Origin: Sphyrna mokarran
Lineage: Eukaryota
DNA length: 64,000 bases
NCBI GenBank assembly: GCA_024679065.1
Contig: JAGIQG010000005.1
Location: forward strand, 82,336,001-82,400,000
Direction of reading: 5' to 3'
The position numbers and the translations under genes are program-made. The notes beneath the pieces are model-generated. The model saw nothing but the letters and a program-made list of their open reading frames with translations, had not been told where the DNA came from and did not search any database. Positions 54,558 to 55,036 of this stretch are shown in pieces. Each line of letters starts with the position of its first letter. Position 1 is the stretch's first letter.

Positions 54558-54693
54558 ATATATCCATTCCAAGGAAAAACCCTTCAAATGTCAAGAATGC
54601 GGTAAAGGATTTTGCCAGTCCAGAACATTAGCTGTTCACAAAACGCTGCACGTGCAGGTAAAAGAGCTGAAAACTTCTAAGATCAAATGCTGA
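54558..54693 (+). CDS. osr1: Odd-skipped related 1, last coding exon (end of ZF2, ZF3 and C-terminus)
   Basis: Polypyrimidine tract and TTCAG acceptor; phase-compatible; encodes [44 protein letters not shown]. The [11 protein letters not shown] tail is OSR1-specific. Total length is 259 aa. Confidence 0.97.
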
Positions 54694-55036
54694 ACATGAA
54701 ATCGGCAAATGGGACTCAAAAGTGGAGCATTGAGGAAAGCCGAGAATGCAGACAGACCTTCACATTTAGAAACAGCACAAAACTATATCCATTCCGCTGC
54801 TGTTTTTTTTTTCTGTTATTTTATTCCAATACAGTTTTTTTTTCTGCGGGATTCTGCTTTGGGGGAAGACCTGTGTCGTTTTCTAAGTCTGAGCAACAGC
54901 AAAACAAAAAAAAATCCATGGTTTCGGTAGATTGCCTTTTGACTGGAGGGCGGTTTGAACTGTTGTCACCGTCCCTGATGTCCTCCGCCGTGGACGTGGA
55001 GTTGGAAGATGATGTTCTGTCTTCTGTGTTTAATAG

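Follow-up and report, generated by a model that had tools for sequence, protein, structure and literature searches.

The three-finger Osr1 of a shark probably arose by retention of its last intron, leaving a fossil exon for fingers 4 and 5 in the 3′ UTR

Osr1 belongs to the core regulators of development in kidney, heart and connective tissue. Retention of the last intron, which gives a composite terminal exon, is a known route to an alternative C-terminus, and duplicate genes are likewise known to divide their splice forms between them or to lose some. For the paralog Osr2, one report describes both five- and three-finger proteins, made through two acceptors at the last exon (PMC3042965). Here we describe how the osr1 locus of Sphyrna mokarran compares with these systems. 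All positions refer to the window, that is the whole 64,000-nt stretch of DNA that was analysed, in which 54558-55036 is the 3′ end of osr1. The features of the locus are as follows.

46469..46580, + strand: upstream coding exon of the long Osr1 form, with a phase-1 donor after 46580 (sequence; tblastn with shark Osr1 N-termini, 38/38 identical to model P0145)
53509..54196, + strand: osr1 exon with the short-form ATG (53553) and zinc fingers 1-2 (sequence; covered by RNA-type contigs)
54197..54557, + strand: finger 2/3 intron, 361 nt, phase 2, spliced out (GT..AG joint in contigs of runs X1, X2 and X16)
54558..54657, + strand: finger 3 exon, 100 nt, ending in the Gln codon CAG (length and end as in osr2)
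54655..54663, + strand: putative ancestral phase-0 5′ splice site CAG/GTAAAA, weak at +5/+6 (sequence, osr2 alignment, U1 pairing)
54658..54693, + strand: intron-derived tail of 11 codons, with TGA at 54691-54693 (sequence)
54658..55036, + strand: retained last intron, 379 nt from GT to AG, now coding tail and 3′ UTR (read through by contigs of 4/4 runs)
54810..54834, + strand: weak candidate internal acceptor, first exon base 54835 (14/20 pyrimidines; match to the tail of model P0122)
55014..55036, + strand: putative ancestral 3′ splice site, pyrimidine tract and TAG (aligns with the osr2 acceptor)
55037..55232, + strand: pseudogenized exon for fingers 4-5 and an osr1-specific C-terminal extension (tblastn with the basking-shark exon product; DNA alignments)
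55108..55110, + strand: putative surviving homolog of an internal Osr2B-type acceptor, CAG, first exon base 55111 (alignment)
55708..55843, + strand: 3′ UTR block conserved with a bird-type osr1 locus (L015), with AATAAA at 55822

The identity of the gene is clear. The protein of exon 2 is 99-97% identical to the Osr1 of sawshark, sawfish and skate and 64% identical to shark Osr2, and the N-terminal region and fingers 1-2 are nearest to Osr1 and not to Osr2. Over 215 alignment columns, the window Osr1 is identical to the Mustelus model (P0145). Its product has three C2H2 fingers followed by a VKELK-type tail. A genome search recovered one close paralog, a separate osr2 locus in the same genome (L011). 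The upstream exon at 46469-46580 lengthens Osr1 by about 52-57 residues in the models of cartilaginous fishes, and the models of bichir, paddlefish and lungfish carry N-terminal extensions of comparable length. In the first intron, 52911-52984 is a fragment of a high-copy repeat to which thousands of unrelated contigs align, and which may be the end of a SINE.

An earlier, sequence-only reading had proposed that a phase-0 donor lies directly after finger 3, 379 nt ahead of a TAG acceptor and a fossil exon. These coordinates are exact: the Gln codon CAG occupies 54655-54657, GTAAAA 54658-54663 and the TAG 55034-55036. The donor is indeed plausible, as it pairs with the 5′ end of the genome's own U1 at -8.3 kcal/mol, and only 1.6% of the 3319 plus-strand GT sites in the window pair equally well or better. 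It is nevertheless the weakest of the four osr donors tested (the others at -9.6, -11.0 and -11.5 kcal/mol). The proposed acceptor also holds up, with 14 pyrimidines in the preceding 20 nt (12-17 in five other scored osr acceptors), and the sequence behind it, 55037-55215, aligns with the osr2 last exon of the same genome with a local score of 73 (18.8 ± 2.7 for 500 shuffles, maximum 34). The same reading had computed that splicing to 55037 would add 15 frameshifted codons and a stop at 55082-55084. The computation is correct; the product is hypothetical, since no junction from 54657 appears in the contigs of the 4/4 runs, although low-level splicing is possible because contigs drop rare forms.

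The transcript data consist of such assembled contigs, from 4 of the 22 listed runs. None of the runs is recorded as RNA, and three of these four (X1, X2, X16) were taken as RNA solely because their contigs skip an intron at GT..AG. In each of the three, a single contig lacks the finger 2/3 intron and continues unbroken across 54658-55036 and the fossil exon, ending at 55761 (X1), 56054 (X2) and 56128 (X16), so that the retained last intron is found in otherwise spliced mRNA in 3/4 runs. The X1 contig has zero differences from the window, and a contig of the fourth run (X6) covers 54562-55824. This shark's osr1 mRNA keeps its last intron and stops within it, and the exon behind is disabled. 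We also considered the VKELK tail as an isoform of the Osr2B type, which would use an internal acceptor in the last exon, and rejected it: the tail is contiguous with exon 3 in the DNA. The CAG at 55108-55110 shows no use in the contigs of the 4 runs.

Comparison with osr2 bears on the age of the intron. The osr2 gene of the same genome has a phase-0 intron of 493 nt after the same Gln codon, behind which the last exon encodes fingers 4-5. A metagenome contig (L075) carries another vertebrate osr2, in which an intron of 323 nt stands at this codon. The finger 3 exon is 100 nt long with the same end base in both paralogs, and 81/100 positions are identical between the window and L011. In a three-way alignment, the acceptors of both osr2 genes fall on the TAG/G of the window. 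No alignment is obtained between the bodies of the osr1 and osr2 introns (local score of 26, against 22.0 ± 2.7 for shuffled sequence); because of this, their homology is argued from position, which points to a real and ancestral last intron in osr1, at a position common with osr2. Between the osr2 of this shark and that of the distant vertebrate, the last ~36 nt of the intron are near-identical (L011:4207-4242 and L075:1126-1166), the remaining intron being unalignable. This end is likely to be a conserved splicing element for the choice between the A and B forms. Its osr1 counterpart (window 55000-55036) is only partly preserved.

The exon behind the intron is homologous to a functional exon and carries disabling lesions: two deletions (10 nt near 55047 and 2 nt near 55103), an insertion of 1 nt near 55127 and a stop codon at 55069-55071. 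Four zinc ligands are gone, finger 4 having lost its two cysteines and its first histidine, and finger 5 its second cysteine. This is osr1's own exon: it matches the basking-shark osr1 product (E 7e-14) better than osr2 (E 2.5e-06), and it runs on to 55232 with an extension that is confined to the osr1 exon products of sharks, as in P0123 and P0127. The contigs of three related organisms lack the stop at 55069 and show a different change in the codon of the lost histidine (among 40/136 substitutions and 12/27 indels listed), and decay therefore seems to be proceeding separately.

Models of other cartilaginous fishes show the exon in intact and in decayed states. We collected 38 cartilaginous-fish osr1 proteins, one of them too short to reach the end of finger 3. 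The remaining 37 comprise 9 five-finger models (7 species), 22 with a VKELK-type tail and 6 others. The five-finger models, spliced at this Gln to an intact exon, come from Callorhinchus, Pristiophorus, Heterodontus, two Chiloscyllium, Rhincodon and Cetorhinus; all are predicted annotation models, with no RNA junction seen for any. Both forms are annotated in four species (Callorhinchus, the two Chiloscyllium species and Cetorhinus). Decayed versions of fingers 4-5 occur in Scyliorhinus canicula (a low-quality model) and in Narcine; among the rays there is one decayed model (P0151), and the remaining rays are without a five-finger model. The existing RefSeq/UniRef entries include one low-quality corrected osr1 model (P0125). 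By their N-termini, the five-finger models group with the window and apart from osr2 (osr2 clade 95/98), in a tree in which the osr1 group holding the window is unstarred and from which the Branchiostoma rows were dropped for low coverage. Over the 54-residue core, eight osr1 models differ from osr2 by 2, 3, 6, 6, 9, 11, 12 and 18 changes, against 0-3 changes in seven osr2 and five outgroup proteins. The products of chimaera and horn shark differ from each other at 1/54 residues, and each by 2-3 from osr2.

Some models use other tails from the same Gln. Six of six residues in the tail of P0122 match window 54845-54862, and this whale-shark model appears to use the weak acceptor region at 54810-54834, whereas the tails of P0134, P0130 and P0151 have no convincing placement on the window. 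In bony vertebrates, none of the 163 osr1-type proteins among the members listed in the clusters (165 minus 2 hagfish rows) has five fingers, 155 having the tail and 8 being other. The sequence-only reading had asked whether the Val codon stays GTA or GTR across vertebrate osr1. The Val is not invariant: it is kept in 100/103 scored tails, and the codon is GTA in both osr1 genes examined at the DNA level (two only). Ile, Leu and Ala occur once each, and because of these replacements the donor is dispensable in some bony vertebrates. In the bird-type osr1 (L015:5335-5857), the donor is CAA/GT, and splicing to an acceptor 493 nt further on yields the tail of 9 residues in two songbird X2 models (P0343, P0344). 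Homology of this acceptor to the ancestral one is not apparent, since 134, 250 and 173 of 300 shuffles attain its anchored scores, and we therefore treat it as a new cryptic site. No remnant of the fossil exon was found in L015 (local score of 20, against 22.1 ± 2.7).

The last intron is apparently not shared by all bilaterians. A metagenome scan gave 80 loci, of which 17 without the finger-3 motif used were unreadable for this comparison and 54 had an intron at neither junction (transcripts or intronless genes, hence uninformative). Two vertebrate-type loci have a GT at this codon. The last seven, all of non-vertebrate type, have the finger 2/3 intron and lack the finger 3/4 intron; since it is absent from 7/7 informative loci of this type, the osr last intron may be a chordate or vertebrate gain. 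The finger 2/3 phase-2 intron, found at the same Arg codon in osr/bowl/sob loci (L071, L083-L086, L088, L089) and in vertebrate osr1 and osr2, is by this distribution apparently an old bilaterian intron. In cyclostomes, lamprey and hagfish osr protein models have Val after the Gln and very short or unrelated tails, beside five-finger forms. Four lamprey models (P0286-P0289) end in Q-VKD-stop, a second lamprey gene (P0291) reads Q-VKPWPR and a hagfish model (P0294) reads Val-Ser after the Gln. As protein models, these are consistent with an intron at this position, and they suggest that retained-intron forms exist in cyclostomes.

Altogether, we consider it probable that the kept-intron form was an alternative isoform in the ancestor of jawed vertebrates, that it became the sole form several times, and that in this shark the fossil exon was left behind in the 3′ UTR. 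The sequence-only reading had derived three-finger Osr1 from intron retention, to be refuted by osr2 and outgroup genes without an intron at this codon. Both osr2 genes have one, the osr1 models of seven cartilaginous fishes are spliced there to an intact exon, and retention is supported, with one refinement: the tail is not a consequence of the decay of the fossil exon. Retention probably came first, and loss of the exon later and repeatedly, because the tail is common to chimaera, sharks, rays and bony vertebrates and stands beside the five-finger form in four species.

Four other accounts have to be weighed against this one. The read-through form could be older than jawed vertebrates, having been present in a single ancestral osr gene, elaborated in osr1 and dropped in osr2, which has its other three-finger route. 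Most of the evidence is compatible with this, and the lamprey endings Q-VKD-stop and Q-VKPWPR, beside five-finger forms, speak for it: a Val-Lys reading requires A at +4 and +5, which makes a weak donor of the same type, and both osr2 genes have G at +5. The likeness, however, amounts to two or three residues, the first of which is forced by any GT donor; the hagfish model reads Val-Ser, and lamprey orthology is uncertain, with long branches. We regard this earlier origin as unlikely, although it deserves to be kept in mind. A lower probability still goes to a single silencing of the finger 4-5 exon in the jawed-vertebrate ancestor, followed by slow decay, the five-finger models then being homology-driven and never spliced. 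The contigs of four runs without a junction agree with it, and so does the faster drift of osr1 exon products than of osr2 in most sharks. It would have to explain, however, the single difference between the chimaera and horn-shark products, their closeness to osr2 and the open frames of seven species, while the copy in the window accumulated three indels, one stop and the loss of four ligands; such a contrast is hard to obtain without selection. Moreover, the non-homologous tails that start from the same Gln (P0122, P0130, P0134, P0343, P0344) suggest a live donor, and the bird tail matches the acceptor found in L015.

The remaining two accounts concern the mRNA end and the origin of the downstream piece. 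Intronic polyadenylation is a common route to alternative C-termini, and the three-finger mRNA could end inside the intron without full retention. A sequence scan found no AATAAA or ATTAAA between 54600 and 55517, and the first polyA-type hexamer is at 55518, beyond the fossil exon. The block at 55708-55843 is conserved with the bird-type locus (local score of 73, against 29.4 ± 3.3 for 50 shuffles) and the X6 contig ends two bases past the start of its AATAAA. Given the contigs of 4/4 runs that pass through the intron and beyond the fossil exon, the position of the first hexamer and the conserved polyA block, full retention is favoured and termination inside the intron is very improbable. Finally, the downstream piece was first recognized by its likeness to osr2, and could have been an inserted or converted osr2 copy behind a GT that follows the Gln by chance. 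Its closer match to osr1 products, the osr1-only extension and an acceptor that aligns in place effectively refute this.

The history that we favour, early retention and later loss of the exon, could have proceeded as follows. From the amphioxus, hemichordate and cyclostome proteins, we infer an ancestral osr gene with five fingers; it would also have had this intron after the Gln of finger 3. In osr1, a weak donor (+5 A, now fixed by the Lys codon) would have left part of the pre-mRNA unspliced. A stop without a downstream exon junction escapes nonsense-mediated decay, and as this is the last intron, no junction would follow the early stop and the retained form would have escaped it. The short basic tail could then have come under selection at the protein level and been fixed before the split of chimaera, sharks and bony fishes; the seven cartilaginous fishes with an intact exon, four of them with the VKELK form beside it, place the tail before the decay of the exon. 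With the function then carried by the three-finger form, fingers 4-5 of osr1 would have relaxed and decayed in separate lineages; an open exon is still kept by chimaera, sawshark, horn shark, carpet sharks and basking shark. Given the accepted phylogeny of jawed vertebrates, the intact exons of chimaera, one squalomorph and three orders of galeomorphs make it likely that the five-finger form was lost on at least three occasions: among bony vertebrates, in at least one ray (the electric ray) and in ground sharks. The bony-vertebrate loss is read from absence in the annotations, among the members listed, and from one bird-type locus with no detectable remnant. More tentatively, the three-/five-finger pair of vertebrate Osr may predate jawed vertebrates, with retention as the first route (the lamprey models), Osr2 arriving at it by another splice route and Osr1 fixing retention at least three times, so that living chimaera and sharks would show all the stages between a functional five-finger Osr1 and a fossil exon.

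This history would explain why Osr1 has three fingers while outgroups and Osr2A have five, and it traces a conserved protein tail to intron sequence. Cartilaginous fishes offer a rare living series for the fixation of an isoform, with intact, relaxed, degenerate and fossil states of the exon, and natural five-finger Osr1 proteins make the contribution of fingers 4-5 to DNA targets and to activator or repressor behaviour testable. Known splicing mechanisms are unchanged by this case. Five-finger and VKELK forms already stand among the cartilaginous-fish osr1 models of RefSeq/UniRef, as unremarked automated predictions; in literature searches of openly accessible texts, we found neither a synthesis of them nor an account of a five-finger Osr1 or of the origin of the tail. 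Two further sources (10.1101/165837, PMC12999481) gave nothing relevant. The mechanism is thus of a known kind, and the history of Osr1 is one that we did not find described.

The closest system is the Osr2A/Osr2B pair. The family, the donor codon and the outcome are the same: in both cases a five-finger protein is accompanied by one with three fingers and a short tail of unrelated sequence. The route differs: for Osr2B, splicing goes to a second acceptor, which lies within the last exon and leads into another frame, whereas the Osr1 form needs no splice and its tail is intron sequence. Osr2 has kept both forms, whereas in the osr1 of this shark the long form appears to be dead. Last-intron retention in general shares with osr1 the weak donor, the in-frame read-through, the intronic stop and the conversion of the downstream exon into UTR. 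Unlike the usual cases, osr1 seems to be left with the retained form alone; conservation of its tail extends from chimaera to mammals, and the exon that is bypassed survives in living species in graded decay. As in the partition of isoforms between duplicates, two paralogs of one five-finger ancestor have come to hold different isoform sets; here, however, the loss in osr1 was likely late and repeated, with intact exons still present in the models of seven living species.
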